A model generated the notes under the pieces. The model had not been told where the DNA came from. It saw only the letters and a program-made list of their open reading frames with translations, and searched no databases. The translations under genes were made by a program, and so were the position numbers. Source: Eledone cirrhosa (taxonomy: Eukaryota). Taken from it: a stretch of 64,000 nucleotides of DNA. Positions 18,487 to 53,176 of the stretch are shown here, in pieces. Positions within the stretch are counted from its first letter, which is position 1. Each line of letters starts with the position of its first letter. The stretch is from positions 21,328,001 through 21,392,000 of the forward strand of contig OZ024749.1 of the NCBI GenBank assembly GCA_964016885.1, read 5' to 3'.

Positions 18487-19310
18487 CTAGGGTTACGTTT
18501 ATTCATTTTTTTGATTTTTTCACTCTTTCTATTTTTCATTTCTTCATTTTCTGAATTTTTTAGCGTTAGGGTTATGGGTAATGTTAGCGTTAAGTTTAGG
18601 GATAGGTTTAGGGTTAGGGTTAGGGTTAGGGTTAGGTTTCGGGTTAGGGTTAGGTTTAGGGTTAGGGTTAATGTTTAGGATTTAGGGTTTAGGGTTATGG
18701 TTAGGGTTAGGGTTAGGGTTAGGGTTAGTGTTAGTGTTCCGGTTACAGTTAGGGTTAGGGTTAGGGTTAGGATTAATGCTTAGCGTTTTGGGTTTAGGGT
18801 TAGGGTAAGGATTAGGGTTAGGGTTAGGGTTAGGTCTAGTGTTAGGGTTACGGTTTAGGGTTAGGGTTAGGGGTAGAGTTAAGTTTAGGGTTAGGGTTAG
18901 GGTTATGGTTAGCGTTAGGGTTAGGGTTAGGGTTAGGGGTAGGGTTAGCGTTAAGTTTAAGGTTAGGGTTAGGGTTAGGATTTAGGGTTAGGGTTAGGGT
19001 TATGTTTAGGGCTAAGGTTTTTTCATTTTTACGATTTTTTCAATTTTTCGATTTTTTTCGATTTTTTCATTATTTTAATTATTTAGCGTTAGGGTTAGGG
19101 GTATGGATAGGGTTAGTGTTTAGGGTTTAGGGTTTAGGGTTATGGTTAGGGTTAGGGTTAGGGTTAGGGTTAGGTTTAGTGTTAGGTTTAGGGTTATGGT
19201 TAGGGTTAGGGTTAAGGTTAGTGTTAGTGTTTCGTTTAGAGTTAGGGTTATGGTTAGTGTTTAGGGTTAGGGTTAGGGTTAGGGTTAGGGTTAGGGTTAG
19301 GGTTAGGGTT

Positions 19311-20875
19311 AGGGTTTAGGATTTAGGGTTTAGGTTTAGGGTTATGGTTAGGGTTAGGGTTAAGGTTAGTGTTAGTGTTTCGGTTAGAGTTAGGGTTAGG
19401 GTTTAGGGTTAGGTTAAGGGTAATGGTTAGGGTTAGGATTAGGGTTAGTGTTAGTGTTACGGTTAGAGTTAGAGTTAGGATTAGGGTTTAGGGTTAGGGT
19501 TAGGGTTAGGTTTAGGGGTAGGGTTAGGTGTAAGGTTAGGGTTAGGGTTAGGGTTACGGTTTCGTTTTTTCATTTTTTCGATTTTTTCATTTTTCGATTT
19601 TTTTTTAGATTTTTTCATTTATTTCGAATTTTCTTTTTTTCATTTTTTCGATTTTACGATTTTTTGATTTTTTCATTTTTGAACTATTTCATTTTTTCGA
19701 ATTTTCGATTTTCTCGTATTTTTTATTTTACCATTTTTTCGATTTTTTTTTTTCATTTCTTCATTTTCTCGATTTTTTAGCGTTAGGGTTATGTGTAAGG
19801 TTAGCGTTAAGGTTAGGGATAGGTTTAGGGTTAGGGTTAGGGTTAGGTTTAGGGTTAGGGTTAGGGTTAGGGTTAGGGTTAATGTTTAGGATTTAGGGTT
19901 TAGGGTTATGGTTAGGGTTAGGGTTAGGGTTAGGGTTAGTGTTAGTGTTAGTGTTGCGGTTACAGTTAGGGTTAGGGTTAGGATTTAGGGTTAGGGTTAG
20001 GGTTAGTTTTAATGTTTAGCGTTTTTGGGTTAGGGTTAGGGTTAGGGTTAGGGTTAGGTTTAGTGTTAGATTTAGGGCTAGGTATAGGGTTAGGGTTAGG
20101 GTTAGGGTTAGGGTTAGGGTTAGGGTTAGGGTTTAGGATTTAGGGTTTAGGTTTAGGGTTATGGTTAGGGTTAGGGTTAAGGTTAGTGTTAGTGTTTCGG
20201 TTAGAGTTAGGGTTAGGGTTTAGGGTTAGGTTAAGGGTAATGGTTAGGGTTAGGATTAGGGTTAGTGTTAGTGTTACGGTTAGAGTTAGAGTTAGGATTA
20301 GGGTTTAGGGTTAGGGTTAGGGTTAGGTTTAGGGGTAGGGTTAGGTGTAGGGTTAGGGTTAAGTTTTTTCATTTTTTTTATTTTTTCACTTTTTCTATTT
20401 TTCGATTTTTTCATTTTTCGACTTTTTTACATTTTTTCATTTTATCCTTCTTTCGATTTTTTTCGATTTTTTCATTTCTTTCGAATTTTCTTTTTTTCGT
20501 TTTTTCGATTTTACGATTTTTTAGATTTTTTAATTTTTTCACTATTTCATTTTTTCGAATATTCGATTTTCTCGTTTTTTTCATTTTACCATATTTTCTA
20601 TTTTTTCTATTTTTTCTATTTTTCGATTTTTCGATTTTTTCATTTTTTCATTTTCTCAATTTTTTAGCGTTAGGGTTATGTGTAAGGTTAGCGTTAAGAT
20701 TAGGAATAGGTTTAGGGTGTAGGATTTAGGGTTTAGGTTTAGGGTGTAGGATTTAGGGTTTAGGTTTTAGGGTTAGGGTTAGGGTTAGGGTTTAGGATTT
20801 AGTGTTTAGGTTTAGGGTTATGGTTAGGGTTAGGTTTAAGGTTAGTGTTAGTGTTTCGGTTAGAGTTAGGGTTAT

Positions 20876-20906
<31 letters not shown>

Positions 20907-23900
20907 GGTTACGGTTTCGTTTTTTCATTTTTTCGATTTTTTCATTTTTCGATTTTTTTAGATTTTTTCATTTATTTAGAATTTTCTTTTTTTCATTTTT
21001 TCGATTTTACGATTTTTTTGATTTTTTCATTTTTTAACTATTTCATTTTTTCGAATTTTCGATTTTCTCGTATTTTTCATTTTACCATTTTTTCGATTTT
21101 TTTTTTTTCATTTCTTCATTTTCTCAATTTTTTAGCGTTAGGGTTATGTGTAAGGTTAGCGTTAAGGTTAGGGATAGTTTTAGGGTTAGGGTTAGGGTTA
21201 GGTTTAGGGTTAGGGTTAGGGTTAGGGTTAGGGTTAATGTTTAGGATTTAGGGTTTAGGGTTATGGTTAGGGTTAGGGTTAGGGTTAGGGTTAGTGTTAG
21301 TGTTAGTGTTGCGGTTACAGTTAGGGTTAGGGTTAGGATTTAGGGTTAGGGTTAGGGTTAGGATTAATGTTTAGCGTTTTGGGTTAGGGTTAGGGTTAGC
21401 GTTAGGGTTAGGTTTAGTGTTAGATTTAGGGCTAGGTTTTGGGTTAGGGTTAGGGTTAGGGTTAGGGTTTAGGATTTAGGGTTTAGGTTTAGGGTTAGGG
21501 TTAGGGTTAGGGTTAGGGTTAGGGTTAGGGTTAGGTTTAGGGTTAGGGTTAGGGTTAGGGTTAGGGTTAATGTTTAGGATTTAGGATTTAGGGTTATGGT
21601 TAGTGTTAGGATTAGGGTTAGGGTTAGTGTTAGTGTTCCGGTTACAGTTAGGTTTAGGGTTAGGATGTAGGGTTAGGGTTAGGGTTAGGATTAATGTTTA
21701 GCGATTTGGGTTTAGGGTTAGGGTTAGGATTAGGTCTAGTGTTAGGGTTAGGGTTTAGGGTTAGTGTTAGGTGTAGGGTTAAATTTAGGGTTAGGGTTAG
21801 TGTTAGCGTTAGTGTTAGGGTTAGGGTTAGGGGTAGGGTTAGCGTTAAGGTTAGGGTTAGGGTTAGGGTTAGGATTAGGATTTAGGGTTAGGGTTAGGGT
21901 TATGGTTAGGGTTAGGGTTAGGGTTAGGGTTAGGGTTCCGGTTACTTTTAGGGTTAGGGTTAGGGTTAGGATTAATGTTTAGGATTTAGGGTTTAGGGTT
22001 AGGGTTAGGGTTAGGGTTAGTGTTAGTGTTTCGGTTACAGTTAGGATTAGGGTGAGGGTTAGGGTTACGGTTTCGTTTTTTCATTTTTACGATTTTTTCA
22101 TTTTTCGATTTTTTCATTTTTCGATTTTTGTCGATTTTTTCATTTTATCCTTTCGATTTTTTCGATTTTTTAATTTCTTTCGAATTTTCTTTTTTTCATT
22201 TTTTTTATTTTACGATTTTTTCGATTTTTTCATTTTTTCACTATTTCATTTCTTTGAATTTTCGATTTTCTCGTTTTTTTTCATTTTACCATTTTTTCGA
22301 TTTTTTCTATTTTTTCTATTTTTCGATATTTTCGATATTTTCTTTTTTTCATTTTCTCAATTTGTTAGCGTTAGGGTTATGTGTAAGGTTAGCGTTAAGG
22401 TTAGGGATAGGTTTTGTGTTAGGGCTAGGGTTAGGGTTAGGGTTAGGGTTAGAGTTAGGATTAGCGTTAATGTTTAGGATTTAGGGTTTAGGGTTAGGGC
22501 TAGGGTTGGGGTTATGGTTAGGGTTAGGGTTAGCGTTAGGTTTAGTGTTAGGGTTAGGGTTTGGGTTAGGATTTGCGTTAATGTTTAGGATTTAGGGTTT
22601 AGGGTTAGGGTTAGGGTTAGGGTTAGGGTTAGGGTTAGGGTTAGGGTTAGGGTTAGGGTTAGGGTTAGGGTTAGGGTTAGGGTTAGGGTTAGGGTTAGGG
22701 TTAGGGTTAGGGTTAGGGTTAGGGTTAGGGTTAGGGTTAGGGTTAGGGTTAGGGTTAGGGTTAGGGTTAGGGTTAGGGTTAGGGTTAGGGTTAGGGTTAG
22801 GGTTAGGGTTACGGTTAGGGTTTCTTTTTTTCATTTTTTCGATTTTTTCATTTTTCGATTTTTTTCATTTTTCTATTTTTTTAGATTTTTTTCATTTTTT
22901 CGATTTTTTCAATTTTTCCATTTTTTCAAATTTTTTCAGTATTTCATTTTTAAATTTTTTTTAGATTTTATCATTTTTTCTTGTTTGGGATTTTTCCATT
23001 TTTTCATTTCAATATTTTAGCGTTAGGGTTAGGGGTATGAATTGGGTTAGTGTTTAGGGTTGAGGGTTTAGGGTTATGGTTAGGGTTAGGTTTAGTGTTA
23101 GGGTTAGGGTTAGTGTTAGCGTTAGTGTTAGGGTTAGGGTTAGCGTTAGGGTTAGGATTAGGATTTAGGGTTAGGGTTAGGGCTAGGGTTATGGTTAGGG
23201 TTAGGGTTAGGGTTAGGGTTAGGGTTAGGGTTAGGGTTCCGGTTACGGTTAGGGTTACGGTTACAGTTAGGATTAGGGTTAGGGTTAGGGTTAGGGTTAG
23301 GGTTAGGGTTAGGGTTAGGGTTAGTGTTAGTGTTACGGTTACAGTTAGGATTAGGGTTAGGGTTAGGGTTACGGTTTCGTTTTTTAATTTTTACTATTTT
23401 TTCATTTTTCGATTTTTGTCGATTTTTTCATTTTATCCTTCCTTCGATTTTTTCGATTTTTTAATTTCTTTCGAATTTTCATTTTTTTAATTTTCTCAAT
23501 TTTTTAGCGTTAGGGTTATGTGTAAGGTTAGCGTTAAGGTTAGGGATAGGTTTAGTGTTAGGGCTAGGGTTAGGGTTAGGGTTAGGGTTAGGATTAGCGT
23601 TAATGTTTAGGATTTAGGGTTTAGGGTTAGGGCTAGGGTTAGGGTTATGGTTAGGGTTAGGGTTAGGGTTAGGTTTAGTGTTAGGGTTAGTGTTAGGGTT
23701 AGGGTTAGGATTAGTGTTAGGTTTAGTGTTAGGGCTAGGGTTAGGGTTAGGGTTAGGGTTAGGATTAGCGTTAATGTTTAGGATTTAGGGTTTAGGGTTA
23801 GGGCTAGGGTTAGGGTTAGGGTTAGTGTTACGGTTAGGGTTTCTTTTTTTCATTTTTTCGATTTTTTCATTTTTCGATTTTTTTCATTTTATATTTTTTT

Positions 23901-24803
23901 AGATTTTTTTCATTTTTTCGATTTTTTCAATTTTTCCATTTTTTCAAATTTTTTCAGTATTTCATTTTTAAATTTTTTTAAGATTTTTTCATTTTTTCTT
24001 GTTTGGGATTTTTCCATTTTTTCATTTCAATATTTTAGCGTTAGGGTTAGGGGTATGAATTGGGTTAGTGTTTAGGGTTGAGGGTTTAGGGTTATGGTTA
24101 GGGTTAGGGTTAGGTTTAGTGTTAGGGTTAGGGTTAGTGTTAGCGTTAGTGTTAGGGTTAGGGTTAGGGTAGGGTTAGCGTTAAGGTTAGGGTTAGGGTT
24201 AGGGTTAGGGTTCCGGTTACGGTTAGGGTTAGGGTTAGGATTTAGGGTTAGGGTTAGGGTTAGGATTAGGGTTATGGTTAGGGTTAGAGTTAGGGTTAGG
24301 TTTAGTGTTAGGGTTAGGGTTAGGGTTAGGGTTAGGATTAGCGTTAATGTTTAGGATTTAGGGTTTAGGGTTAGGGCTAGGGTTAGGGTTAGAGTTAGGG
24401 TTACGGTTAGGGTTTCTTTTTTTCATTTTTTCGATTTTTTCATTTTTCGATTTTTTTCTCTTTTCTATATTTTTAGATTTTTTCATCTTTTCGATTTTTT
24501 CAATTTTTCGATTTTTTCAAATTTTTTCAGTATTTCATTTTTAAATTTTTTTTCAGATTATTTCATTTTTTCTTTGGGATTTTTCCATTTTTTCATTTCA
24601 ATATTTTAGCGTTAGGGTTAGGGGTATGAATTGGGTTAGTGTTTAGGGTTGAGGGTTTAGGGTTATGGTTAGGGTTAGGGTTAGGTTTAGTGTTAGGGTT
24701 AGGGTTAGCGTTAGGGTTAGGGTGTTGGATTTAGGGTTTAGGTTTAGGGTTATGGTTAGGTTCAGGGTTAATGCTAGTGTTTGTGTTACGGTTAGAGTTA
24801 CGT

Positions 24804-24837: not shown

Positions 24838-25081
24838 CGTTTATTCATTTTTTGGATTTTTTCACTTTTTCGATCTTTCATTTCTTCATTTTCTCATTTT
24901 CTCATTTTCTCATTTTTTAGCGTTAGGGTTATGGGTAAGGTTAGCATTAGGGTTAGGGTTAAGTTTAGGGTTAGGGTTAGGGTTAGGGTTAGGGTTAGGG
25001 TTAGTGTTAGTGTTTCGGTTAGAGTTAGGGTTAGGGTTTAGGGTTAGGTTAAGGGTAATGGTTAGGGTTAGGGTTAGGGTT
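19311..25081 (+). repeat. Higher-order repeat family H1, copy 1 (~5.77 kb)
   Basis: Anchor TTAAGGGTAATGG at ~19,414 / 25,185 / 31,617. ORF triplets 20265/26006/32454, 21694/27447/33876 and 23050/28629/35058. Confidence 0.88.
22599..22808 (+). repeat. Perfect (TTAGGG)35 tract, the longest uninterrupted canonical telomeric run in the window
   Basis: 210 bp counted exactly, between ...AGGATTTAGGGT and TTACGGTTAGGG; corresponds to the (NP)n minus-strand ORF 22592..22834. Confidence 0.96.
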
Positions 25082-28000
25082 AGGGTTTAGGATTTAGGGT
25101 TTAGGTTTAGGGTTATGGTTAGGGTTAGGGTTAAGGTTAGTGTTAGTGTTTCGGTTAGAGTTAGGGTTAGGGTTTAGGGTTAGGTTAAGGGTAATGGTTA
25201 GGGTTAGGATTAGGGTTAGTGTTAGTGTTACGGTTAGAGTTAGAGTTAGGATTAGGGTTTAGGGTTAGGGTTAGGGTTAGGTTTAGGGGTAGGGTTAGGT
25301 GTAAGGTTAGGGTTAGGGTTAGGGTTACGGTTTCGTTTTTTCATTTTTTCGATTTTTTCATTTTTCGATTTTTTTTTAGATTTTTTCATTTATTTCGAAT
25401 TTTCTTTTTTTCATTTTTTCGATTTTACGATTTTTTGATTTTTTCATTTTTGAACTATTTCATTTTTTCGAATTTTCGATTTTCTCGTATTTTTCATTTT
25501 ACCATTTTTACGATTTTTTTTTTTTCATTTCTTCATTTTCTCAATTTTTTAGCGTTAGGGTTATGTGTAAGGTTAGCGTTAAGGTTAGGGATAGGTTTAG
25601 GGTTAGGGTTAGGGTTAGGTTTAGGGTTAGGGTTAGGGTTAGGGTTAGGGTTAATGTTTAGGATTTAGGGTTTAGGGTTATGGTTAGGGTTAGGGTTAGG
25701 GTTAGGGTTAGTGTTAGTGTTAGTGTTGCGGTTACAGTTAGGGTTAGGGTTAGGATTTAGGGTTAGGGTTAGGGTTAGTTTTAATGTTTAGCGTTTTGGG
25801 TTAGGGTTAGGGCTAGGTTTAGGGTTAGGGTTAGGGTTAGGGTTAGGGTTAGGGTTAGGGTTAGGGTTAGGGTTTAGGATTTAGGGTTTAGGTTTAGGGT
25901 TATGGTTAGGGTTAGGGTTAAGGTTAGTGTTAGTGTTTCGGTTAGAGTTAGGGTTAGGGTTTAGGGTTAGGTTAAGGGTAATGGTTAGGGTTAGGATTAG
26001 GGTTAGTGTTAGTGTTACGGTTAGAGTTAGAGTTAGGATTAGGGTTTAGGGTTAGGGTTAGGGTTAGGTTTAGGGGTAGGGTTAGGTGTAGGGTTAGGGT
26101 TAAGTTTTTTCATTTTTTTTATTTTTTCACTTTTTCTATTTTTCGATTTTTTCATTTTTCGACTTTTTTACATTTTTTCATTTTATCCTTCTTTCGATTT
26201 TTTTCGATTTTTTCATTTCTTTCGAATTTTCTTTTTTTCGTTTTTTCGATTTTACGATTTTTTAGATTTTTTAATTTTTTCACTATTTCATTTTTTCGAA
26301 TATTCGATTTTCTCGTTTTTTTCATTTTACCATATTTTCTATTTTTTCTATTTTTTCTATTTTTCGATTTTTCGATTTTTTCATTTTTTCATTTTCTCAA
26401 TTTTTTAGCGTTAGGGTTATGTGTAAGGTTAGCGTTAAGATTAGGAATAGGTTTAGGGTGTAGGATTTAGGGTTTAGGTTTAGGGTGTAGGATTTAGGGT
26501 TTAGGTTTTAGGGTTAGGGTTAGGGTTAGGGTTTAGGATTTAGTGTTTAGGTTTAGGGTTATGGTTAGGGTTAGGTTTAAGGTTAGTGTTAGTGTTTCGG
26601 TTAGAGTTAGGGTTATGGTTAGGGTTTTGGGTTAGGGGTAGGGTTAGGGTTACGGTTTCGTTTTTTCATTTTTTCGATTTTTTCATTTTTCGATTTTTTT
26701 AGATTTTTTCATTTATTTAGAATTTTCTTTTTTTCATTTTTTCGATTTTACGATTTTTTTGATTTTTTCATTTTTTAACTATTTCATTTTTTCGAATTTT
26801 CGATTTTCTCGTATTTTTCATTTTACCATTTTTTCGATTTTTTTTTTTTCATTTCTTCATTTTCTCAATTTTTTAGCGTTAGGGTTATGTGTAAGGTTAG
26901 CGTTAAGGTTAGGGATAGGTTTAGGGTTAGGGTTAGGTTTAGGTTTAGGGTTAGGGTTAGGGTTAGGGTTAATGTTTAGGATTTAGGGTTTAGGGTTATG
27001 GTTAGGGTTAGGGTTAGGGTTAGGGTTAGTGTTAGTGTTAGTGTTGCGGTTACAGTTAGGGTTAGGGTTAGGATTTAGGGTTAGGGTTAGGGTTAGGATT
27101 AATGTTTAGCGTTTTGGGTTAGGGTTAGGGTTAGGGTTAGGGTTAGGTTTAGTGTTAGATTTAGGGCTAGGTTTTGGGTTAGGGTTAGGGTTAGGGTTAG
27201 GGTTAGGGTTAGGGTTAGGGTTTAGGATTTAGGGTTTAGGTTTAGGGTTAGGGTTAGGGTTAGGGTTAGGGTTAGGGTTAGGGTTAGGTTTAGGGTTAGG
27301 GTTAGGGTTAGGGTTAGGGTTAATGTTTAGGATTTAGGATTTAGGGTTATGGTTAGTGTTAGGATTAGGGTTAGGGTTAGTGTTAGTGTTCCGGTTACAG
27401 TTAGGTTTAGGGTTAGGATGTAGGGTTAGGGTTAGGGTTAGGATTAATGTTTAGCGATTTGGGTTTAGGGTTAGGGTTAGGATTAGGTCTAGTGTTAGGG
27501 TTAGGGTTTAGGGTTAGTGTTAGGTGTAGGGTTAAATTTAGGGTTAGGGTTAGTGTTAGCGTTAGTGTTAGGGTTAGGGTTAGGGGTAGGGTTAGCGTTA
27601 AGGTTAGGGTTAGGTTTAGGGTTAGGATTAGGATTTAGGGTTAGGGTTAGGGTTATGGTTATGGTTAGGGTTAGGGTTAGGGTTAGGGTTCCGGTTACGG
27701 TTAGGGTTAGGGTTAGGGTTAGGATTAATGTTTAGGATTTAGGGTTTAGGGTTAGGGTTAGGGTTAGGATTAGTGTTAGTGTTTCGGTTACAGTTAGGAT
27801 TAGGGTGAGGGTTAGGGTTACGGTTTCGTTTTTTCATTTTTACGATTTTTTCATTTTTCGATTTTTTCATTTTTCGATTTTTGTCGATTTTTTCATTTTA
27901 TCCTTTCGATTTTTTCGATTTTTTAATTTCTTTCGAATTTTCTTTTTTTCATTTTTTTTATTTTACGATTTTTTCGATTTTTTCATTTTTTCACTATTTC

Positions 28001-30835
28001 ATTTCTTTGAATTTTAGATTTTCTCGTTTTTTTTCATTTTACCATTTTTTCGATTTTTTCTATTTTTTCTATTTTTCGATATTTTCGATATTTTCTTTTT
28101 TTCATTTTCTCAATTTGTTAGCGTTAGGGTTATGTGTAAGGTTAGCGTTAAGGTTAGGGATAGGTTTAGTGTTAGGGCTAGGGTTAGGGTTAGGGTTAGG
28201 GTTAGAGTTAGGATTAGCGTTAATGTTTAGGATTTAGGGTTTAGGGTTAGGGCTAGGGTTGGGGTTATGGTTAGGGTTAGGGTTAGCGTTAGGTTTAGTG
28301 TTAGGGTTAGGGTTTGGGTTAGGATTTGCGTTAATGTTTAGGATTTAGGGTTTAGGGTTAGGGCTAGGGTTAGGGTTAGGGTTAGGGTTACGGTTAGGGT
28401 TTCTTTTTTTCATTTTTTCGATTTTTTCATTTTTCGATTTTTTTCATTTTTCTATTTTTTTAGATTTTTTTCATTTTTTCGATTTTTTCAATTTTTCCAT
28501 TTTTTCAAATTTTTTCAGTATTTCATTTTTAAATTTTTTTTAGATTTTCTCATTTTTTCTTGTTTGGGATTTTTCCATTTTTTCATTTCAATATTTTAGC
28601 GTTAGGGTTAGGGGTATGAATTGGGTTAGTGTTTAGGGTTGAGGGTTTAGGGTTATGGTTAGGGTTAGGTTTAGTGTTAGGGTTAGGGTTAGTGTTAGCG
28701 TTAGTGTTAGGGTTAGGGTTAGCGTTAGGGTTAGGATTAGGATTTAGGGTTAGGGTTAGGGTTAGGGTTATGGTTAGGGTTAGGGTTAGGGTTAGGGTTA
28801 GGGTTAGGGTTAGGGTTAGGGTTCCGGTTACGGTTAGGGTTACGGTTACAGTTAGGATTAGGGTTAGGGTTAGGGTTAGGGTTAGGGTTAGGGTTAGGGT
28901 TAGGGTTAGGGTTAGTGTTAGTGTTACGGTTACAGTTAGGATTAGGGTTAGGGTTAGGGTTACGGTTTCGTTTTTTAATTTTTACTATTTTTTCATTTTT
29001 CGATTTTTTCATTTTTCGATTTTTGTCGATTTTTTCATTTTATCCTTCCTTCGATTTTTTCGATTTTTTAATTTCTTTCGAATTTTCATTTTTTTAATTT
29101 TCTCAATTTTTTAGCGTTAGGATTATGTATAAGGTTAGCGTTAAGGTTAGGGATAGGTTTAGTGTTAGGGCTAGGGTTAGGGTTAGGGTTAGGGTTAGGA
29201 TTAGCGTTAATGTTTAGGATTTAGGGTTTAGGGTTAGGGCTAGGGTTAGGGTTATGGTTAGGGTTAGGGTTAGGGTTAGGTTTAGTGTTAGGGTTAGTGT
29301 TAGGGTTAGGGTTAGGATTAGTGTTAGGTTTAGTGTTAGGGCTAGGGTTAGGGTTAGGGTTAGGGTTAGGATTAGCGTTAATGTTTAGGATTTAGGGTTT
29401 AGGGTTAGGGCTAGGGTTAGGGTTAGGGTTAGTGTTACGGTCAGGGTTTCTTTTTTTCATTTTTTCGATTTTTTCATTTTTCGATTTTTTTCATTTTATA
29501 TTTTTTTAGATTTTTTTCATTTTTTCGATTTTTTCAATTTTTCCATTTTTTCAAATTTTTTCAGTATTTCATTTTTAAATTTTTTTTAGATTTTTTCATT
29601 TTTTCTTGTTTGGGATTTTTCCATTTTTTCATTTCAATATTTTAGCGTTAGGGTTAGGGGTATGAATTGGGTTAGTGTTTAGGGTTGAGGGTTTAGGGTT
29701 ATGGTTAGGGTTAGGGTTAGGTTTAGTGTTAGGGTTAGGGTTAGTGTTAGCGTTAGTGTTAGGGTTAGGGTTAGGGTAGGGTTAGCGTTAAGGTTAGGGT
29801 TAGGGTTAGGGTTAGGGTTCCGGTTACGGTTAGGGTTAGGGTTAGGATTTAGGGTTAGGGTTAGGGTTAGGATTAATGTTTAGGATTTAGGGTTTAGGGT
29901 TAGGGTTAGGGTTAGGGTTAGGGTTAGGGTTAGTGTTAGTGTTACGGTTACAGTTAGGATTAGGGTTAGGGTTAGGGTTACGGTTTCGTTTTTTCATTTT
30001 TATGATTTTTTCAATTTTCAATTTTTTCATTTTTCGATTTTTGTCGATTTTTTCATTTTATCCTTCTTTCGATTTTTTCGATTTTTTAATTTCTTTCGAA
30101 TTTTCATTTTTTCATTTTTTCGATTTTACGATTTTTTCGATTTTTTCATTTTTTCACTATTTCATTTCTTCGAATTTTCGATTTTCTCGTTTTTTTCATT
30201 TTACCGTCTTTTCGATTTTTTCTATTTTTTCTATTTTTCGATATTTTCGATTTTTTCATTTTTTCATTTTCTCAATTTTTTAGCGTTAGGGTTATGTGTA
30301 AGGTTAGCGTTAAGGTTAGGGATAGGTTTAGTGTTAGGGCTAGGGTTAGGGTTAGGGTTAGGGTTAGGATTAGCGTTAATGTTTAGGATTTAGGGTTTAG
30401 GGTTAGGGCTAGGGTTAGGGTTAGAGTTAGGGTTACGGTTAGGGTTTCTTTTTTTCATTTTTTCGATTTTTTCATTTTTCGATTTTTTTCTCTTTTCTAT
30501 ATTTTTAGATTTTTTCATTTTTTCGATTTTTTCAATTTTTCGATTTTTTCAAATTTTTTCAGTATTTCATTTTTAAATTTTTTTTCAGATTATTTCATTT
30601 TTTCTTTGGGATTTTTCCATTTTTTCATTTCAATATTTTAGCGTTAGGGTTAGGGGTATGAATTGGGTTAGTGTTTAGGGTTGAGGGTTTAGGGTTATGG
30701 TTAGGGTTAGGGTTAGGTTTAGTGTTAGGGTTAGGGTTAGCGTTAGGGTTAGGGTGTTGGATTTAGGGTTTAGGTTTAGGGTTATGGTTAGGTTCAGGGT
30801 TAATGTTAGTGTTTGTGTTACGGTTAGAGTTACGT

Positions 30836-31513: not shown

Positions 31514-34500
31514 AGGGTTTAGGATTTAGGGTTTAGGTTTAGGGTTATGGTTAGGGTTAGGGTTAAGGTTAGTGTTAGTGTTTCGGTTAGAGTTAGGGTT
31601 AGGGTTTAGGGTTAGGTTAAGGGTAATGGTTAGGATTAGGGTTAGTGTTAGTGTTACGGTTAGAGTTAGAGTTAGGATTAGGGTTTAGGGTTAGGGTTAG
31701 GGTTAGGTTTAGGGGTAGGGTTAGGTGTAAGGTTAGGGTTAGGGTTAGGGTTACGGTTTCGTTTTTTCATTTTTTCGATTTTTTCATTTTTCGATTTTTT
31801 TAGATTTTTTCATTTATTTCGAATTTTCTTTTTTTCATTTTTTCGATTTTACGATTTTTTGATTTTTTCATTTTTGAACTATTTCATTTTTTCGAATTTT
31901 CGATTTTTCTCGTATTTTTCATTTTACCATTTTTTCGATTTTTTTTTTTCATTTCTTCATTTTCTCAATTTTTTAGCGTTAGGGTTATGTGTAAGGTTTG
32001 CGTTAAGGTTAGGGATAGGTTTAGGGTTAGGGTTAGGGTTAGGTTTAGGGTTAGGGTTAGGGTTAGGGTTAGGGTTAATGTTTAGGATTTAGGGTTTAGG
32101 GTTATGGTTAGGGTTAGGGTTAGGGTTAGTGTTAGTGTTAGTGTTGTGGTTACAGTTAGGGTTAGGGTTAGGATTTAGGGTTAGGGTTAGGGTTAGTTTT
32201 AATGTTTAGCGTTTTGGGTTAGGGTTAGGGTTAGGGTTAGGGTTAGGTTTAGTGTTAGATTTAGGGCTAGGTTTAGGGTTAGGGTTAGGGTTAGGGTTAG
32301 GGTTAGGGTTAGGGTTAGGGTTTAGGATTTAGGGTTTAGGTTTACGGTTATGGTTAGGGTTAGGGTTAAGGTTAGTGTTAGTGTTTCGGTTAGAGTTAGG
32401 GTTAGGGTTTAGGGTTAGGTTAAGGGTAATGGTTAGGGTTAGGATTAGGGTTAGTGTTAGTGTTACGGTTAGAGTTAGAGTTAGGATTAGGGTTTAGGGT
32501 TAGGGTTAGGGTTAGGTTTAGGGGTAGGGTTAGGTGTAGGGTTAGGGTTAAGTTTTTTCATTTTTTTTATTTTTTCACTTTTTCTATTTTTCGATTTTTT
32601 CATTTTTCGACTTTTTTACATTTTTTCATTTTATCCTTCTTTCGATTTTTTTCGATTTTTTCATTTCTTTCGAATCTTCTTTTTTTCGTTTTTTCGATTT
32701 TACGATTTTTTAGATTTTTTAATTTTTTCACTATTTCATTTTTTCGAATATTCGATTTTCTCGTTTTTTTCATTTTACCATATTTTCTATTTTTTCTATT
32801 TTTTCTATTTTTCGATTTTTCGATTTTTTCATTTTTTCATTTTCTCAATTTTTTAGCGTTAGGGTTATGTGTAAGGTTAGCGTTAAGATTAGGAATAGGT
32901 TTAGGGTGTAGGATTTAGGGTTTAGGTTTAGGGTGTAGGATTTAGGGTTTAGGTTTAGGGTTAGGGTTAGGGTTAGGGTTTAGGATTTAGTGTTTAGGTT
33001 TAGGGTTATGGTTAGGGTTAGGTTTAAGGTTAGTGTTAGTGTTTCGGTTAGTGTTAGGGTTATGGTTAGGGTTTAGGGTTAGGGTTACGGTTTCGTTTTT
33101 TCATTTTTTCGATTTTTTCATTTTTCGATTTTTTTCGATTTTTTCATTTATTTAGAATTTTCTTTTTTTCATTTTTTCGATTTTACGATTTTTTTGATTT
33201 TTTCATTTTTTAACTATCTCATTTTTTCGAATTTTCGATTTTCTCGTATTTTTCATTTTACCATTTTTTCGATTTTTTTTTTTTCATTTCTTCATTTTCT
33301 CAATTTTTTAGCGTTAGGGTTATGTGTAAGGTTAGCGTTAAGGTTAGGGATAGGTTTAGGGTTAGGGTTAGGGTTAGGTTTAGGGTTAGGGTTAGGGTTA
33401 GGGTTAATGTTTAGGATTTAGGGTTTAGGGTTATGGTTAGGGTTAGGTTTAGGGTTAGGGTTAGTGTTAGTGTTAGTGTTGCGGTTACAGTTAGGGTTAG
33501 GGTTAGGATTTAGGGTTAGGGTTAGGGTTAGGATTAATGTTTAGCGTTTTGGGTTAGGGTTAGGGTTAGGGTTAGGGTTAGGTTTAGTGTTAGATTTAGG
33601 GCTAGGTTTTGGGTTAGGGTTAGGGTTAGGGTTAGGGTTAGGGTTAGGGTTAGGGTTTAGGATTTAGGGTTTAGGTTTAGGGTTAGGGTTAGGGTTAGGG
33701 TTAGGGTTAGGGTTAGGTTTAGGGTTAGGGTTAGGGTTAGGGTTAGGGTTAATGTTTAGGATTTAGGATTTAGGGTTATGGTTAGTGTTAGGATTAGGGT
33801 TAGGGTTAGTGTTAGTGTTCCGGTTACAGTTAGGTTTAGGGTTAGGATGTAGGGTTAGGGTTAGGGTTAGGATTAATGTTTAGCGATTTGGGTTTAGGGT
33901 TAGGGTTAGGATTAGGTCTAGTGTTAGGGTTAGGGTTTAGGGTTAGTGTTAGGTGTAGGGTTAAATTTAGGGTTAGGGTTAGTGTTAGCGTTAGTGTTAG
34001 GGTTAGGGTTAGGGGTAGGGTTAGCGTTAAGGTTAGGGTTAGGGTTAGGGTTAGGATTAGGATTTAGGGTTAGGGTTAGGGTTATGGTTAGGGTTAGAGT
34101 TAGGGTTAGGGTTAGGGTTCCGGTTACGGTTAGGGTTAGGGTTAGGGTTAGGATTAATGTTTAGGATTTAGGGTTTAGGGTTAGGGTTAGGGTTAGGGTT
34201 AGTGTTAGTGTTTCGGTTACAGTTAGGATTAGGGTGAGGGTTAGGGTTACGGTTTCATTTTTTCATTTTTACGATTTTTTCATTTTTCGATTTTTTCATT
34301 TTTCGATTCTTGTCGATTTTTTCATTTTATCCTTTCGATTTTTTCGATTTTTTAATTTCTTTCGAATTTTCTTTTTTTCATTTTTTTTATTTTACGATTT
34401 TTTCGATTTTTTCATTTTTTCACTATTTCATTTCTTTGAATTTTCGATTTTCTCGTTTTTTTTCATTTTACCATTTTTTCGATTTTTTCTATTTTTTCTA

Positions 34501-36642
34501 TTTTTCGATATTTTCGATATTTTCTTTTTTTCATTTTCTCAATTTGTTAGCGTTAGGGTTATGTGTAAGGTTAGCGTTAAGGTTAGGGATAGGTTTAGTG
34601 TTAGGGCTAGGGTTAGGGTTAGGGTTAGGGTTAGAGTTAGGATTAGCGTTAATGTTTAGGATTTAGGGTTTAGGGTTAGGGCTAGGGTTGGGGTTATGGT
34701 TAGGGTTAGGGTTAGCGTTAGGTTTAGTGTTAGGGTTAGGGTTTGGGTTAGGATTTGCGTTAATGTTTAGGATTTAGGGTTTAGGGTTAGGGCTAGGGTT
34801 AGGGTTAGGGTTAGGGTTACGGTTAGGGTTTCTTTTTTTCATTTTTTCGATTTTTTCATTTTTCGATTTTTTTCATTTTTCTATTTTTTTAGATTTTTTT
34901 CATTTTTTCGATTTTTTCAATTTTTCCATTTTTTCAAATTTTTTCAGTATTTCATTTTAAAATTTTTTTTAGATTTTATCATTTTTTCTTGTTTGGGATT
35001 TTTCCATTTTTTCATTTCAATATTTTAGCGTTAGGGTTAGGGGTATGAATTGGGTTAGTGTTTAGGGTTGAGGGTTTAGGGTTATGGTTAGGGTTAGGTT
35101 TAGTGTTAGGGTTAGGGTTAGTGTTAGCGTTAGTGTTAGGGTTAGGGTTAGCGTTAGGGTTAGGATTAGGATTTAGGGTTAGTGTTACGGTTAGGGTTTC
35201 TTTTTTTCATTTTTTCGATTTTTTCATTTTTCGATTTTTTTCATTTTATATTTTTTTAGATTTTATCATTTTTTCTTGTTTGGGATTTTTCCATTTTTTC
35301 ATTTCAATATTTTAGCGTTAGGGTTAGGGGTATGAATTGGGTTAGTGTTTAGGGTTGAGGGTTTAGGGTTATGGTTAGGGTTAGGGTTAGGTTTAGTGTT
35401 AGGGTTAGGGTTAGTGTTAGCGTTAGTGTTAGGGTTAGGGTTAGGGTTAGGGTAGGGTTAGCGTTAAGGTTAGGGTTAGGGTTAGGGTTAGGGTTCCGGT
35501 TACGGTTAGGGTTAGGGTTAGGATTTAGGGTTAGGGTTAGGGTTAGGATTAATGTTTAGGATTTAGGGTTTAGGGTTAGGGTTAGGGTTAGGGTTAGGGT
35601 TAGGGTTAGGGTTAGTGTTAGTGTTACGGTTACAGTTAGGATTAGGGTTAGGGTTAGGGTTACGGTTTCGTTTTTTCATTTTTATGATTTTTTCAATTTT
35701 CAATTTTTTCATTTTTCGATTTTTGTCGATTTTTTCATTTTATCCTTCTTTCGATTTTTTCGATTTTTTAATTTCTTTCGAATTTTCATTTTTTCATTTT
35801 TTCGATTTTACGATTTTTTCGATTTTTTTCATTTTTTCACTATTTCATTTCTTCGAATTTTCGATTTTCTCGTTTTTTTTCATTTTACCATCTTTTCGAT
35901 TTTTTCTATTTTTTCTATTTTTCGATATTTTCGATTTTTTCATTTTTTCATTTTCTCAATTTTTTAGCGTTAGGGTTATGTGTAAGGTTAGCGTTAAGGT
36001 TAGGGATAGGTTTAGTGTTAGGGCTAGGGTTAGGGTTAGGGTTAGGGTTAGGGTTAGGATTAGCGTTAATGTTTAGGATTTAGGGTTTAGGGTTAGGGCT
36101 AGGGTTAGGGTTATGGTTAGGGTTAGAGTTAGGGTTAGGTTTAGTGTTAGGGTTAGGGTTAGGGTTAGGGTTAGGATTAGCGTTAATGTTTAGGATTTAG
36201 AGTTTAGGGTTAGGGCTAGGGTTAGGGTTAGAGTTAGGGTTACGGTTAGGGTTTCTTTTTTTCATTTTTTCGATTTTTTCATTTTTCGATTTTTTTCTCT
36301 TTTCTATATTTTTAGATTTTTTCATTTTTTCGATTTTTTCAATTTTTCGATTTTTTCAAATTTTTTCAGTATTTCATTTTTAAATTCTTTTTCAGATTAT
36401 TTCATTTTTTCTTTGGGATTTTTCCATTTTTTCATTTCAATATTTTAGCGTTAGGGTTAGGGGTATGAATTGGGTTAGTGTTTAGGGTTGAGGGTTTAGG
36501 GTTATGGTTAGGGTTAGGGTTAGGTTTAGTGTTAGGGTTAGGGTTAGCGTTAGGGTTAGGGTGTTGGATTTAGGGTTTAGGTTTAGGGTTATGGTTAGGT
36601 TCAGGGTTAATGCTAGTGTTTGTGTTACGGTTAGAGTTACGT

Positions 36643-46733: not shown

Positions 46734-47961
46734 TGGTTAGGGTTAGGATTAGGGTTAGTGTTAGTGTTACGGTTAGAGTTAGAGTTAGGATTAGGGTTTT
46801 GGGTTAGGGTTAGGGTTAGGGTTAGGGTTAGGGTTAGGGTTAGTGTATAGGATTTAGGGTTTAGGTTTAGGATTACGGTTAGGGTTAGGGTTAAGGTTAG
46901 TGTTGGTGGTACGGTTGAGTTAGGGTTAAGGTTAGGGTTATGGTTAGGGTTAGGGTTAGGGTTAGGTTTAGGGTTAGAGTTAGGGTTAGGGTTTAGGATT
47001 TAGCGTTTAGGGTTAGGGTTAGGGTTAGGGTGAGGGTTAGTGTTAGGATTAGGGATACTGTTAGTGTTACGGTTAGAATCCGGATTAGGGTAGGGTTTAG
47101 GGTTAGGTTTAGGGTTAGCTTTAGCCTTAGGATTTTTTCGTTTTTTCAAATTTTTAATTTTTTTCGAATTTTATATTTTTTTACTTTTTCACTTTTTCTC
47201 TTTTTCGATTTTTTCGATTTTTTCATTATTTCATTTTAAAATTTTTTTTCGATTTTTTTATTTTTTCCTTGGGTTTTTCCATTTTTTCGAATTTTTCATT
47301 TTTTCATTTTTTCAATTTTTTAGCGTTAGCGTTAGTGCTTCGGGTTTAGGGTTAAGGTTAGGGTTAGGTTTAGGGTTAGGTTTAGTGTTAGGGTTATGGA
47401 TATGGTTAGGATTAGGGTTAAGGTTACTGTTAGTGTTACGGTTAGAGTTAGGGTTAGGGTTAGGGTTTAGGGTTTGGGTTAGGGTTATGGTTAGGGTTAG
47501 GTTTAGGGTTAGGTTTACGTTAGGGTAGGGTATAGGGTTAGGTTTAGGGGTAGGGTTAGCGTTAATGTTAGGGTTAGTGTTAGGGTTAAGGTGAGGGTTA
47601 GCGTTTAGGGTTATGGTTAGGTTTAGCGTTAGGGTTAGGGTTAGGGTTAGGTTTAGGGTGTTTTTTTCATTTTTTCGAATTTTCAATTTTTAGATTTTTT
47701 CGATTTTTCTATTCTTAGATTTCATTTTTTAAATTTATTTCGAATTTTTCGAATTTTTCATTTTTTGAGTTTTAGATTTTTTCATTTTTTCGAATTTTTC
47801 ATTTTTTTCGAAATTTCAATTTTACCATTTTTTCGATTTTTCTATTCTTAGATTTTTTTATTTTTCTTGGTTAGGGTTAAGGTTAGGGTTTAGGTTTAGG
47901 GTTTACGGTTAGGGTTAGGGTTAGGGTTAGGTTTAGTGTTAGGATTAGGTTTAGGGTTAGA

Positions 47962-47997
<36 letters not shown>

Positions 47998-48460
47998 GGT
48001 TAGGGTTAGTGTTAGTGGTAGGGTTAAGTTTAGGGTTAGGGTTATGGTTAGGGTTAGCGTTAGGATTAGGATTAGGGTTAGGGGTAGGGTTAGCGTTAAT
48101 GTTAGGGTTAGGATTAGGATTAGGATTTAGGGTTAGGGTTAGGGTTAGGGTTAGCGTTAGGGTTAGGGTTAGGCTTAGGATTAGGATTTAGGGTTAGGCT
48201 TAGGGTTAGGTTTTGGGTTAGGGTTTAGGGTTAGGGTTAGTGTTAGTGTTTAGGGTTAGTGTTAGAGTTAAGGTTGGGGTTATGGTTAGGGTTATGGTTA
48301 GGGTTATGGTTAATGTTTAGGGTTTAGTATATAGGGTTAGGGTTAGGCTTAGGGTTAGGGTTAAGGTTAGGATTAGGTTTAGTATTAGGGTTAGTGTTTA
48401 GGGTTAGGATTAGGGGTAGGGTTAAGTTTAGGGTTAGGGTTAGGGTTAGGGTTAGGGTTA
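43371..48460 (+). repeat. Higher-order repeat family H2: two ~2.52-2.59-kb tandem copies, with a further deleted copy inside each 5167-bp unit
   Basis: Anchor GTTAAGGGTTAGGGTTAGGGTTAGGATTAATGCTTAGCG at ~43,371, 45,893, 48,457 and 49,094. ORF pairs 44440/47030/49881 and 45347/47936/50787. Confidence 0.85.
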
Positions 48461-48579
48461 AGGGTTAGGGTTAGGGTTAGGATTAATGCTTAGCGTTAGG
48501 GTTAGGGTTAGGGTTAGGGTTAGGGTTAGGGTTAGGGTTAGGGTTAGGTCTAGTGTTAGGGTTACGGTTTAGGGTTAGA

Positions 48580-48615
<36 letters not shown>

Positions 48616-50298
48616 GGTTAGGGTTAGGGTTAGTGTTAGTGGTAGGGTTAAGTTTAGGGTTAGGGTTATGGTTAGGGTTAGCGTTAGGATTAGGATTAGG
48701 GTTAGGGGTAGGGTTAGCGTTAATGTTAGGGTTAGGGTTAGGGTTAGGATTAGGATTAGGATTTAGGGTTAGGGTTAGGGTTAGGGTTAGCGTTAGGGTT
48801 AGGGTTAGGCTTAGGATTAGGATTTAGGGTTAGGCTTAGGGTTAGGTTTTGGGTTAGGGTTTAGGGTTAGGGTTAGTGTTAGTGTTTAGGGTTAGTGTTA
48901 GAGTTAAGGTTGGGGTTATGGTTAGGGTTATGGTTAGGGTTATGGTTAATGTTTAGGGTTTAGTATATAGGGTTAGGGTTAGGCTTAGGGTTAGGGTTAA
49001 GGTTAGGATTAGGTTTAGTATTAGGGTTAGTGTTTAGGGTTAGGATTAGGGGTAGGGTTAGGATTAATGCTTAGCGTTAGGGTTAGGGTTAGGGTTAAGG
49101 GTTAGGGTTAGGGTTAGGATTAATGCTTAGCGTTAGGGTTAGGGTTAGGGTTAGGGTTAGGGTTAGGGTTAGGGTTAGGGTTAGGTCTAGTGTTAGGGTT
49201 ACGGTTTAGGGTTAGGGTTAGGGGTAGGGTTAAGTTTAGGGTTAGGGTTAGGGTTAGGGTTAGGGTTAAGGTTAGGGTTAGGGGTAGGGTTAGCGTTAAG
49301 TTTAGGGTTAGGGTTAGGGTTAGGGTTAGGATTTAGGGTTAGGGTTAGGGTTAGGATTAATGCTTAGCGTTTTGGGTTTAGGGTTAGGGTAAGGATTAGG
49401 GTTAGGGTTAGGGTTAGGTCTAGTGTTAGGGTTACGGTTTAGGGTTAGGGTTAGGGGTAGGGTTAAGTTTAGGGTTAGGGTTAGGGTTATGGTTAGCGTT
49501 AGGGTTAGGGTTAGGGTTAGGGGTAGGGTTAGCGTTAAGTTTAGGGTTAGGGTTAGGGTTAGGGTTAGGATTTAGGGTTAGGGTTATGTTTAGGGTTAAG
49601 GTTTTTTCATTTTTACGATTTTTTCAATTTTTCGATTTTTTTCGATTTTTTCATTGTTTTAATGGGTTAGGGGTATGGATAGGGTTAGTGTTTAGGGTTT
49701 AGGGTTTAGGGTTATGGTTAGGGTTAGGGTTAGGGTTAGGGTTAGGGTTAAGGTTAGTGTTGGTGGTACGGTTGAGTTAGGGTTAAGGTTAGGGTTATGG
49801 TTAGGGTTAGGGTTAGGGTTAGGTTTAGGGTTAGAGTTAGGGTTAGGGTTTAGGATTTAGCGTTTAGGGTTAGGGTTAGGGTGAGGGTTAGTGTTAGGAT
49901 TAGGGATACTGTTAGTGTTACGGTTAGAATCCGGATTAGGGTAGGGTTTAGGGTTAGGTTTAGGGTTAGCTTTAGCGTTAGGATTTTTTCGTTTTTTCAA
50001 ATTTTTAATTTTTTTCGAATTTTATATTTTTTTACATTTTCACTTTTTCTCTTTTTCGATTTTTTCGATTTTTTCATTATTTCATTTTAAAATTTTTTTT
50101 CGATTTTTTTATTTTTTCCTTGGGTTTTTCCATTTTTTCGAATTTTTCATTTTTTCATTTTTTCAATTTTTTAGCGTTAGCGTTAGTGCTTCGGGTTTAG
50201 GGTTATGGTTAGGGTCAGGTTTAGGGTTAGGTTTAGTGTTAGGGTTATGGATATGGTTAGGATTAGGGTTAAGGTTACTGTTAGTGTTACGGTTAGAG

Positions 50299-50338
<40 letters not shown>

Positions 50339-50812
50339 TGGTTAGGGTTAGGTTTAGGGTTAGGTTTACGTTAGGGTAGGGTATAGGGTTAGGTTTAGGG
50401 GTAGGGTTAGCGTTAATGTTAGGGTTAGTGTTAGGGTTAAGGTGAGGGTTAGCGTTTAGGGTTATGGTTAGGTTTAGCGTTAGGGTTAGGGTTAGGGTTA
50501 GGTTTAGGGTGTTTTTTTCATTTTTTCGAATTTTCAATTTTTCGATTTTTTCGATTTTTCTATTCTTAGATTTCATTTTTTAAATTTATTTCGAATTTTT
50601 CGAATTTTTCATTTTTTGAGTTTTAGATTTTTTCATTTTTTCGAATTTTTCATTTTTTTCGAAATTTCAATTTTACCATTTTTTCGATTTTTCTATTCTT
50701 AGATTTTTTTTTTTTTCTTGGTTAGGGTTAAGGTTAGGGTTTAGGTTTAGGGTTTACGGTTAGGGTTAGGGTTAGGGTTAGGTTTAGTGTTAGGATTAGG
50801 TTTAGGGTTAGA

Positions 50813-50848
<36 letters not shown>

Positions 50849-52636
50849 GGTTAGGGTTAGTGTTAGTGGTAGGGTTAAGTTTAGGGTTAGGGTTATGGTT
50901 AGGGTTAGCGTTAGGATTAGGATTAGGGTTAGGGGTAGGGTTAGCGTTAATGTTAGGGTTAGGATTAGGATTAGGATTTAGGGTTAGGGTTAGGGTTAGG
51001 GTTAGGGTTAGCGTTAGGGTTAGGGTTAGGCTTAGGATTAGGATTTAGGGTTAGGCTTAGGGTTAGGTTTTGGGTTAGGGTTTAGGGTTATGGTTAGGGT
51101 TAGTGTTTAGGGTTAGTGTTAGAGTTAAGGTTGGGGTTATGGTTAGGGTTATGGTTAGGGTTATGGTTAATGTTTAGGGTTTAGTATATAGGGTTAGGGT
51201 TAGGCTTAGGGTTAGGGTTAAGGTTAGGATTAGGTTTAGTATTAGGGTTAGTGTTTAGGGTTAGGATTAGGGGTAGGGTTAAGTTTAGGGTTAGGGTTAG
51301 GGTTTGGGTTAGCGTTAGCGTTACTTTTAGGGTTAGGGTTAGGGGTAGGGTTAGCGTTAAGGTTAGGGTTAGGGTTAGGTTTAGCGGTAGGGTTAGGGTT
51401 AGGATTAGGATTTAGGGTTAGGGTTTAGTTTAGGTTTAAGCTTTTTTCATTATTTCGATTTTTTAAATTGTTCGATTGTTGCGATTCTTTCATTATTTCA
51501 TTTTAAAAAATTTTTTCGATTTTTTCATTTTTTCCTTTTTGGGATTTTTCCATTTTTTCGGTTTTTTCATTTTTTTATTTTTTCAATTTTTTAGCGTTAG
51601 GGTTAGGGTTAGGGTTAGGGTTAGGGTTAGGGTTAGGGTATAGGATTTAGGGTTTAGGTTTATGATTACGGTTAGGGTTAGGGTTAAGGTTAGTGTTGGT
51701 GTTACGGTTAGAGTTAGGGTTAGGGTCAGGGTTATGGTTAGGGTTAGGTTTAGGGTTAGCGTTAGGGTTAGGTTTAGGGTTAGGTTTAGGGGTAGGGTTA
51801 GCGTTAATGTTAGGGTTAGGGTTAGGGTTAGGGTTAAGGTGAGGGTTGGGATTTAGGGTTATGGTTAGGTTTATCGTTAGTGTTATGTTTAGGGTTAGGA
51901 TTAGAATTTAGAGTTAGGGTTAGGGTTAGGGTTAGGGTTAGGGTTAAAGTTAGGGTTAGGGTTTAGGATTTAGCGTTTAGGGTTAGGGTTAGGGTGAGGG
52001 TTAGTGTTAGGATTAGGGATACTGTTAGTGTTACGGTTATAATCAGGATTAGGGTAGGGTTTAGGGTTAGGTTTAGGGTTAGGTTTAGGGTTAGCGTTAC
52101 CGTTAGGATTTTTTATATTTTTTTACTTTTTCACTTTTTAAGTTTTTCAAATCTTTTCGATTTTTTCATTTTTTCATTTTCTCAATTTTTTAGCGTTAGG
52201 GTTCGGGTTAGTGTTAGCGGTGAGGTTACGGTTAGGGTTAGGGTTAGGATTAGGGTTTAGGATTTAGGGTTTAGGGTTAAGGTTAGGGTTAGTGTTAGGG
52301 TTAGTGTTAGTATTACGGTTAGAGTTAAGGTTAGGGTTGGGGTTTAGGGTTTAGGTTTTAGGGTTAGGGTTAGGTTTAGTGTTAGGGTTAGTGTTAGTGT
52401 TAGGGTTAGTGTTAGGGTTAGGGTTAAGTTTAGGGTTAGGGTTAGATTTATGGTTAGTGTTATGGTTAGGATTAGGTTTAGGGGTAGGGTTAGCGTTAAT
52501 GTTAGGGTTAGGGTTATTGTTAAGGTTAGGGTTAAGTTTAGGGTTATGGTTAAGGTTAGGGTTAGGGTTAGGGTTAGTGTTAGGGTTAGGATTTAGGATT
52601 TATGGTTTAGGGTTAGGGTAAGGGTCAGTGTTAGGG

Positions 52637-52676
<40 letters not shown>

Positions 52677-52757
52677 TGTTTAGGGTTAGGGTTAGGGGTA
52701 GGGTTAGCGTTAAGGTTAGGGTTAGGGTTAGGAGTAGGATTTAGGATTAGGTTTAGG
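47579..52757 (+). repeat. Higher-order repeat family H3, copy 1 (5179 bp)
   Basis: Offset to copy 2 is 5179 before ~48,500 (47936/53115) and 5167 after it (48633/53800, 49881/55048, 51662/56829, 52379/57546). The difference is 8 vs 6 TTAGGG units at 48,496-48,543. Confidence 0.95.
47950..49200 (+). repeat. ~625-635-bp internal tandem duplication inside the H3 unit
   Basis: ORFs 48009 and 48633 are near-identical; rare words TTAGTGGTAGGG, TTAAGGTTGGGG and TTAGTATATAGGG each occur twice here, and likewise in copies 2 and 3. Confidence 0.87.

Positions 52758-53140: not shown

Positions 53141-53176
<36 letters not shown>

Follow-up and report, generated by a model that had tools for sequence, protein, structure and literature searches.

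Introduction

Break-inserted short interstitial telomeric sequences (s-ITS) have been described in primates, rodents and horse (PMC7215372, PMC6410037); in these, pure TTAGGG repeats are gained in one step at a site whose paralog lacks them, in the register of the break and with a small target deletion (what is said here and below of a published system holds for the sections of the source that were drawn on). Heterochromatic interstitial telomeric sequences (ITS) are another described form, in which a large interstitial telomere-like block has grown by unequal exchange and slippage (PMC6410037). The subject of this study is a tract of 35 perfect TTAGGG units in Eledone cirrhosa, located in a stretch of 64,000 nucleotides, hereafter the window (assembly GCA_964016885.1, contig OZ024749.1, here C9, positions 21,328,001–21,392,000 of a 56.8-Mb contig). 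The whole window (1–64,000, + strand) is part of an interstitial composite satellite of about 517 kb, in which degenerate TTAGGG blocks alternate with T-rich TTTTTTCA/TTTTTCGA blocks and the G-rich strand lies on +. The 35-unit tract is genuinely present in the assembly and belongs to a recurring class of pure telomeric patches, several of which lie exactly at the junctions of tandem duplications, and the added DNA probably came from the telomere pathway, either by telomerase or by copying of telomeres.

The closest systems differ from this locus in several respects. The targets of s-ITS are unique DNA and are recognised by comparison between species, whereas here the target is itself a telomere-like satellite in a degenerate state; one and the same array has undergone several events, some of them at kilobase tandem duplications. 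The array itself, 21.3–21.8 Mb into C9, has the large interstitial telomere-like block of heterochromatic ITS, and most of its duplications fit that class; the mechanisms listed for the class in section 2.1 of the source comprise unequal crossing-over, gene conversion, slippage and rolling circle, but not the addition of fresh telomere repeats where duplicated copies join (PMC6410037). Degenerate telomere arrays with higher-order repeats in Arabidopsis have likewise been attributed to slippage and unequal crossing-over (PMC11406999). In human, telomeric repeats have also been reported at rearrangement junctions, in telomere insertions of the germline and of tumours and in telomere-spanning fusions (10.1101/2023.11.30.569101, 10.1101/157560), the germline insertions having 6–7 units with a 14-kb deletion or 14–19-bp duplications, and microhomology being common. 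Those are rare single events in non-repetitive DNA with duplications the size of a target site, whereas the patches reported here have 10–67 units, lie at duplications of 1–51 kb and were re-copied as the satellite grew.

Tandem units with telomeric spacers are also found in the Y′ arrays of yeast, at 62% of Y′ junctions (10.1101/2025.11.13.688250), and telomere healing has been proposed to seed inside the repeat units of the Sultan arrays of Chlamydomonas (PMC8287924). Both are subtelomeric; the Y′ spacers provide homology with the terminal tract, and in Sultan arrays healing leads to truncation, whereas the present array is 21 Mb from the contig end, and its extended ends would have rejoined instead of forming a telomere. 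In yeast telomere addition at interstitial telomeric sequence, breaks and collapsed copying are extended mainly by telomerase, with recombination as a back-up (PMC7736798, PMC11626172); in that case the chromosome ends up truncated and capped by a new telomere, whereas here the result would be an aborted telomere of 10–67 units followed by rejoining. A full-text literature search, mostly of openly accessible work and without supplements, found no description of fresh telomeric patches at kilobase tandem-duplication junctions in an interstitial satellite among the top-ranked titles and abstract openings, which is not proof of absence.

The 35-Unit Tract and Its Ancestral State

In the following, [n] denotes n perfect TTAGGG units. 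At 22,599–22,808 (+), (TTAGGG)35 stands in place of [2]CTAGGG[3], the state of the paralogous sites at 28,352–28,387 (+, higher-order copy 2) and 34,781–34,816 (+, higher-order copy 3), and it holds 30 units beyond the parental supply of 2 + 3. The three sites have common flanks: the 652-bp left flank (21,947–22,598, +) matches both paralogs, at +5753 and +12182, the 30 bp directly left of the tract occur exactly three times, and the right flank is also shared by all three. Since the 609-bp right flank (22,809–23,417, +) matches the paralog at +5579, copying of the satellite resumes in register, just as an earlier note on this DNA, made from the letters alone, had supposed. The flanks diverge from their paralogs by about 0.5–1%, and register is kept on either side. 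The net gain of 174 bp (210 − 36) and the change of offset from 5753 to 5579, both given in that note, were obtained again on recomputation, and the open reading frame (ORF) pairs 22,128/27,881 and 23,050/28,629 agree with the two offsets; the ORFs of the window are treated as chance open frames in a low-complexity repeat and not as evidence of genes.

CTAGGG is kept at the equivalent position in more distant paralogs (3,567; 9,389; 16,398; 22,488; 23,792; 24,365 and others), so the pure tract is the derived state and CTAGGG the ancestral one. No intermediate tract lengths occur among the paralogs within the assembly. Both junctions of the tract pass straight into parental satellite with no foreign sequence, and the tract contains no TTGGGG. 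Perfect runs elsewhere had been put at about a dozen units or fewer; the true maximum for the rest of the window is 9 units. The higher-order repeat copy that carries the patch is one of about 5.8 kb (19,261–24,266, +, extent approximate), with a partner at about 25,062–29,873 and a third, partial copy at about 31,795–35,179. The tract was also considered as a tandem-duplication junction, which was ruled out, as the downstream copies match both of its flanks.

The tract shares with s-ITS the presence of pure repeats that are absent from otherwise matching paralogous sites, together with a change at the target site, here the loss of the CTAGGG unit and in its sister events deletions of multi-marker segments or tandem duplications. 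The inserted repeats stand in register with the target, but would do so in any case, the target being telomere-like already. Two other ITS classes were set aside: no retrotranscribed telomerase RNA fragment of the TERC-ITS kind lies beside the tract (the telomerase RNA of this animal has not been identified), and for a fusion ITS the window has no CCCTAA, the flanks are in register, and five subtelomeres are unrelated to the satellite.

Run Lengths and the Limits of Slippage

On C9, 664 kb around the window were read, of which 512.7 kb form the array body. The body contains 16,764 runs with a mean of 1.8 units (size-weighted 2.8), declining geometrically to about 10 units and then leaving a tail of 16, 17, 26, 27, 35 and 45 units. 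The long runs are not a matter of chance, because a geometric fit to lengths 3–9 expects 1.5e-8 runs of at least 35 units, where two are seen, and 0.08 of at least 16 units, where six are seen. Among runs with both flanks common to a paralog, length differences span −4 to +4 units, with 0 of 8,651 beyond 4, and a second count at 6,500 sites of the array body likewise gave no difference above 4 units. Ordinary slippage proceeds in small steps with markers kept and a continuum of lengths; the focal tract, at +30 over its parents, does not have this profile. The view implied in the earlier note, that the tract is not simple slippage, is therefore borne out by the tail of run lengths and by the absence of larger steps.

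The loss of the CTAGGG marker had been put forward as the key argument, and here the analysis departs from the earlier note. The signature of a marker turned into TTAGGG (+1) is found in 38 of 75 in-register events; such single-marker losses being common in the array, the loss is weak evidence by itself and was dropped as a proof of telomerase. The recurrence of pure tracts at new junctions, on the other hand, is strong evidence. With a 16-character context, new junctions lie at 7 of 10 runs of at least 10 units vs 700 of 7,591 single units; with a 24-character context the counts are 3 of 6 long runs and 382 of 6,446 single units.

These results bear on a purely local process without telomere input: a point change or slippage would remove CTAGGG, after which the purified run would lengthen, either step by step or through a single burst of repeated primer slippage while repair synthesis proceeds. 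Besides the common loss of single markers, it is favoured by the report that pure runs slip more (PMC13147528), by the non-telomeric unit TTTTTTCA, which attains 6–10 perfect copies with a continuum of lengths, and by one marker-keeping jump on C1 that is described below. No marker-keeping gain above +4, however, is found among the 8,651 C9 runs, and no variant hexamer exceeds five copies save for one TTGGGG block inside a junction patch, which is itself without a local template; moreover, segments of 9 units and of about 136 bp with several markers have also been replaced by patches. A local origin is accordingly unlikely. As for the pure (TTTTTTCA)6–10 run, it lies at C9:21,465,496–21,492,740 and is carried through a higher-order repeat, and its length continuum is ordinary slippage of a non-telomeric unit.

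Pure Patches at New Junctions of the C9 Array

Parents can be assigned to five of the six C9 tracts of at least 16 units, and all five sit at new junctions; the sixth is a 16-unit tract at C9:21,659,965. Two of the five are in-register replacements, namely the focal tract and 26 units at C9:21,526,876 that replace [2]TTAGGA TTAGTG[1], and three are junctions of tandem duplications. The 45-unit tract at C9:21,768,468 lies at the exact junction of an 11.2-kb tandem duplication, with [5] and [2] as parents. The copies of this duplication are one substitution and a few small repeat-count changes apart, and this near-identity points to a sister-chromatid event and not to a long allele on the homolog, so that the tract would have been made together with the duplication. 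The 27-unit tract at C9:21,661,331 is the exact junction of a 1.14-kb tandem duplication (parents [1] and [1]). In the same way, [17]TTGGGG[1](TTGGGG)13[13] at C9:21,594,661 is the exact junction of a duplication of about 51 kb (parents [1] and [1]), for which 90% of the upstream segment has a downstream match vs 6% for a control segment. Smaller patches of 8–10 units substitute for multi-marker segments of 9 units, about 136 bp and about 150 bp. Marker conversion beside the 27-unit patch was considered and not used: two units differ there, and at one of them an older paralog already shows the state found on the side of the patch.

A set of young duplications was assembled from 86 tandem-type alignments; requiring clean ends and little divergence left 20 of these, which formed 16 events; the case of about 51 kb, having been found via its tract, was excluded. 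Four of the 16 have at least 7 units beyond both parents, two have one, nine have none, and one, in a T-rich block, could not be called. A gain of at least 7 units in 4 of 16 young duplications, set against a gain of at least 5 in 0 of 8,651 ordinary runs, gives a Fisher p of 8e-12 for this hand-curated set. The parent runs are mostly of 1–5 units, about the array average, and such short parents are more readily explained by priming on a few bases than by slippage or by invasion over long homology. A left/right asymmetry of parental homology, which would be a signature of telomerase, was not clear by eye in the patch and duplication events of C9 and C1.

Several patches were re-copied by later duplications with slightly altered length (9/10/12, 8/10, 18/20 and 16/17 units in the C9 and C1 arrays), and the patch class is for that reason heritable DNA and not consensus noise. 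The proposal of the earlier note that telomere repeats were added at a break and that copying then resumed finds support in a stronger form, in that some tracts coincide exactly with the junctions of tandem duplications.

A Second Satellite on C1

Similar isolated pure tracts, which the earlier note had advised looking for, were found in the C9 array and also in a different satellite on C1. This degenerate array is marked by TTAGCTG, and 210 kb of it were read (C1:217.89–218.10 Mb). It has 15 runs of at least 15 units where 0.7 are expected, and these come from 11 events: seven at new junctions with at least 8 extra units, one marker-keeping jump and three without assignable parents. The junction patches include [67], [25], [20/18], and [18] at a duplication of about 1 kb, so the C1 satellite repeats the C9 pattern of patches at new junctions. 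Further interstitial degenerate-TTAGGG satellites with markers of their own are present in the genome; besides that of C1, there are those at about 242.9 Mb of C2 and about 29.35 Mb of C7, which are TTGGGG-rich.

Chromosome Ends, TTGGGG Blocks and a TERT-Like Exon

The real chromosome ends of this animal carry 4–18 kb of pure TTAGGG, with (TTGGGG)n blocks at the inner edge and sometimes farther out. The subtelomeres read at five telomere-bearing ends have one common sequence that is unrelated to the C9 satellite, and at the right end of C9 the assembly lacks a telomere. Over six true ends, 7.9% of 44-unit windows contain a TTGGGG block, a share that is biased upward, as these ends were picked for TTGGGG. 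In the telomeres of C1056, C496, C6 and C19, TTGGGG reaches well beyond the inner edge, where it is intermingled with TTAGGG on a fine scale (69% of 44-unit windows for C1056), and TTGGGG blocks are also present at C21. The outlying TTGGGG could come from a second telomerase RNA template, from recombination or from read error at low depth.

A C-terminal exon of TERT (Pfam PF21399, TERT_C; E 2e-6, above the cut-off), aligning to residues 989–1033 of human TERT, was detected at three places on C27 (13.14, 14.25 and 14.73 Mb) with equal scores and in both orientations, which is either a true TERT duplication or assembly redundancy. The animal therefore likely has telomerase, as judged from this exon. 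A genome search with Pfam Telomerase_RBD gave no match, and its control was equally blank, so it is uninformative.

Units of subtelomere plus telomere also lie at internal scaffold positions: C11 at about 35.2 Mb, C12 at about 43.36 Mb, C2 at about 0.82 Mb, C5 at about 9.7 Mb, C3 at about 361.6 Mb, C21 at about 13.86 Mb and C24 at about 9.1 Mb. Those of C11 and C12 stop at N gaps, and for this reason they are likely scaffolding joins and not fusions.

Source of the Added Repeats

What is seen directly is telomere-type perfect DNA that exceeds the parental content at deletion and duplication junctions. Our leading explanation for the 35-unit tract, held tentatively and at a little under an even chance, is a break repair patch with telomerase as the source of the repeats. 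It is favoured by the short parents, by the pure TTAGGG of the real ends and by the presence of the TERT exon, and in yeast it is mainly telomerase that extends ends arising at interstitial telomeric sequence (PMC7736798, PMC11626172). Under this explanation, a fork would collapse or a double-strand break would form in the hard-to-copy array, and the 3′ end of the left fragment, on the G-rich strand, would be extended with fresh telomere repeats. In an in-register patch such as the focal one, the new tail would anneal to the telomere-like sequence of the other end and the CTAGGG marker would be lost; in a tandem duplication, the extended tail would re-invade the sister chromatid farther upstream, and the patch would sit at the junction.

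Several observations weigh against this explanation. To begin with the duplications, 11 of the 16 young ones show a gain of zero or one unit, and a stricter automatic pass, which excludes re-copied junctions and junctions with a substitution nearby, found a gain of at least 5 at only 1 of 16 junction runs, that of the 45-unit case. Since most young duplications, and also a 5.17-kb triplication in the window, have no patch, patching is a minority route and plain unequal exchange does most of the array growth; the suggestion of the earlier note that telomerase and recombination alternate in building the array is not supported as a rule. On C1, moreover, a run of 4 units became one of 25 while its two markers were retained, which means that large gains are not always marker-erasing. 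Nor was a telomerase RNA fragment identified beside the patches, the telomerase RNA gene itself not having been sought.

The focal tract, in addition, is single-copy and known from the assembly alone. Among 24 sequencing runs listed, the best share of the sampled words was 0.34 and none reached half. Reads and contigs from four runs gave zero depth over the telomere-like block of the paralogous site; they show only that the T-rich satellite block is abundant in these runs, and so neither support nor refute the tract. An artefact of assembly or consensus is nevertheless a very improbable explanation: there is no N within the window or the array, adjacent 5.17-kb copies are free of homopolymer noise, and similar patches have been re-copied with small length shifts.

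The remaining point concerns TTGGGG. The junction patch of the duplication of about 51 kb contains (TTGGGG)13 at a junction where both parents lack TTGGGG, whereas real telomeres contain such blocks, and a single TTAGGG template should not write one. This leads to the other telomere-pathway source, in which the same break would be filled with repeats copied from a telomere, a telomeric circle or telomeric RNA, by strand invasion or microhomology templating, and then re-annealed. Such copying is a real possibility, and less than an even one. The block, being without a local template, resembles the real telomeres of this genome, and its presence in 1 of 17 tracts of at least 15 units (both arrays) is what templating predicts (P of at least one is 0.58–0.76 for a telomere-window share of 5–8%). 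Frequent telomere insertions with microhomology have been reported in tumours with recombinational telomere lengthening (alternative lengthening of telomeres, ALT; 10.1101/157560), and in yeast a broken interstitial tract anneals to a true telomere (PMC6410037). Against templating, two of the largest patches have one perfect unit per parent, which gives little perfect homology, with some partial homology added by the degenerate flanks; the 7.9% figure is biased upward for the reason given above; and TTGGGG far out in four telomeres means that telomerase may write it. As TTGGGG is finely mixed far out and extension by human telomerase increases TTGGGG content (PMC3919612), the (TTGGGG)13 block does not exclude telomerase.

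A wider form of the telomerase explanation would be that germline telomerase routinely starts and aborts telomeres at satellite breaks, that the extended end re-invades the sister, and that telomerase in this way both renews worn repeats as perfect TTAGGG and sets off roughly one in four of the young 1–51-kb duplications by which the array grows, TTGGGG being written via a second telomerase RNA template. Taken jointly, these parts make a speculative and rather doubtful proposal.

Features of the Host Array

The whole array extends from about 21,286,000 to about 21,803,600 of C9, with ordinary DNA on either side; in the window alone, the + strand has 3,766 TTAGGG and 0 CCCTAA. The young triplication of about 5.17 kb lies at 47,580–63,106 (+), and its junction near 52,750 is without added TTAGGG, so that it is a counter-example within the window itself; neighbouring copies can differ by no more than a single substitution and a shift of two units in one run. 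Apart from an inversion of about 0.33 kb at about C9:21,316,600–21,316,950 and that of the 5′ edge, the array keeps a single orientation.

The 5′ edge (C9:21,284,900–21,290,900) begins with an inverted (CCTAG)n/(CTAGG)n block with T-rich spacers, followed by about 1 kb of TTGGGG-rich degenerate repeats and then by an inversion of about 3.3 kb. The ratio of TTGGGG to TTAGGG is 23 per 67 at this edge vs 310 per 30,356 in the body, and the TTGGGG-rich repeats resemble the proximal telomeres of this animal. The whole array may have grown from an old telomere-type seed. This resemblance is also what speaks for the second half of the earlier proposal, which was that of a break or a former chromosome end extended by telomerase. 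The first half is supported, in that break-like junction patches recur and some lie at duplication junctions; a stable former end at the tract, fused or extended afterwards, is the least credible of the readings considered. Both flanks of the tract are in register with one paralog, no subtelomeric sequence, inverted repeat or head-to-head repeats are present at the site, and the site is 21 Mb inside the contig. A former end is unlikely because the satellite is interstitial and its DNA was not found at the five subtelomeres.

Significance

The growth and the lasting telomere-likeness of such satellites are usually ascribed to unequal exchange and slippage. In this array, the degenerate markers serve as a bar code by which single events can be dated, and they show that perfect telomere DNA has entered from outside the local sequence where deletions and tandem duplications were joined. 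Wherever arrays of this kind have been assembled from long reads, the junction test used here can be applied. If telomeres are the template, the patches would be evidence of ALT-like copying in the germline of a normal animal. If telomerase is the source, the array would document, in a natural germline, new telomeres that were begun and aborted before the ends rejoined, and would offer a testable link between telomere maintenance and satellite evolution.

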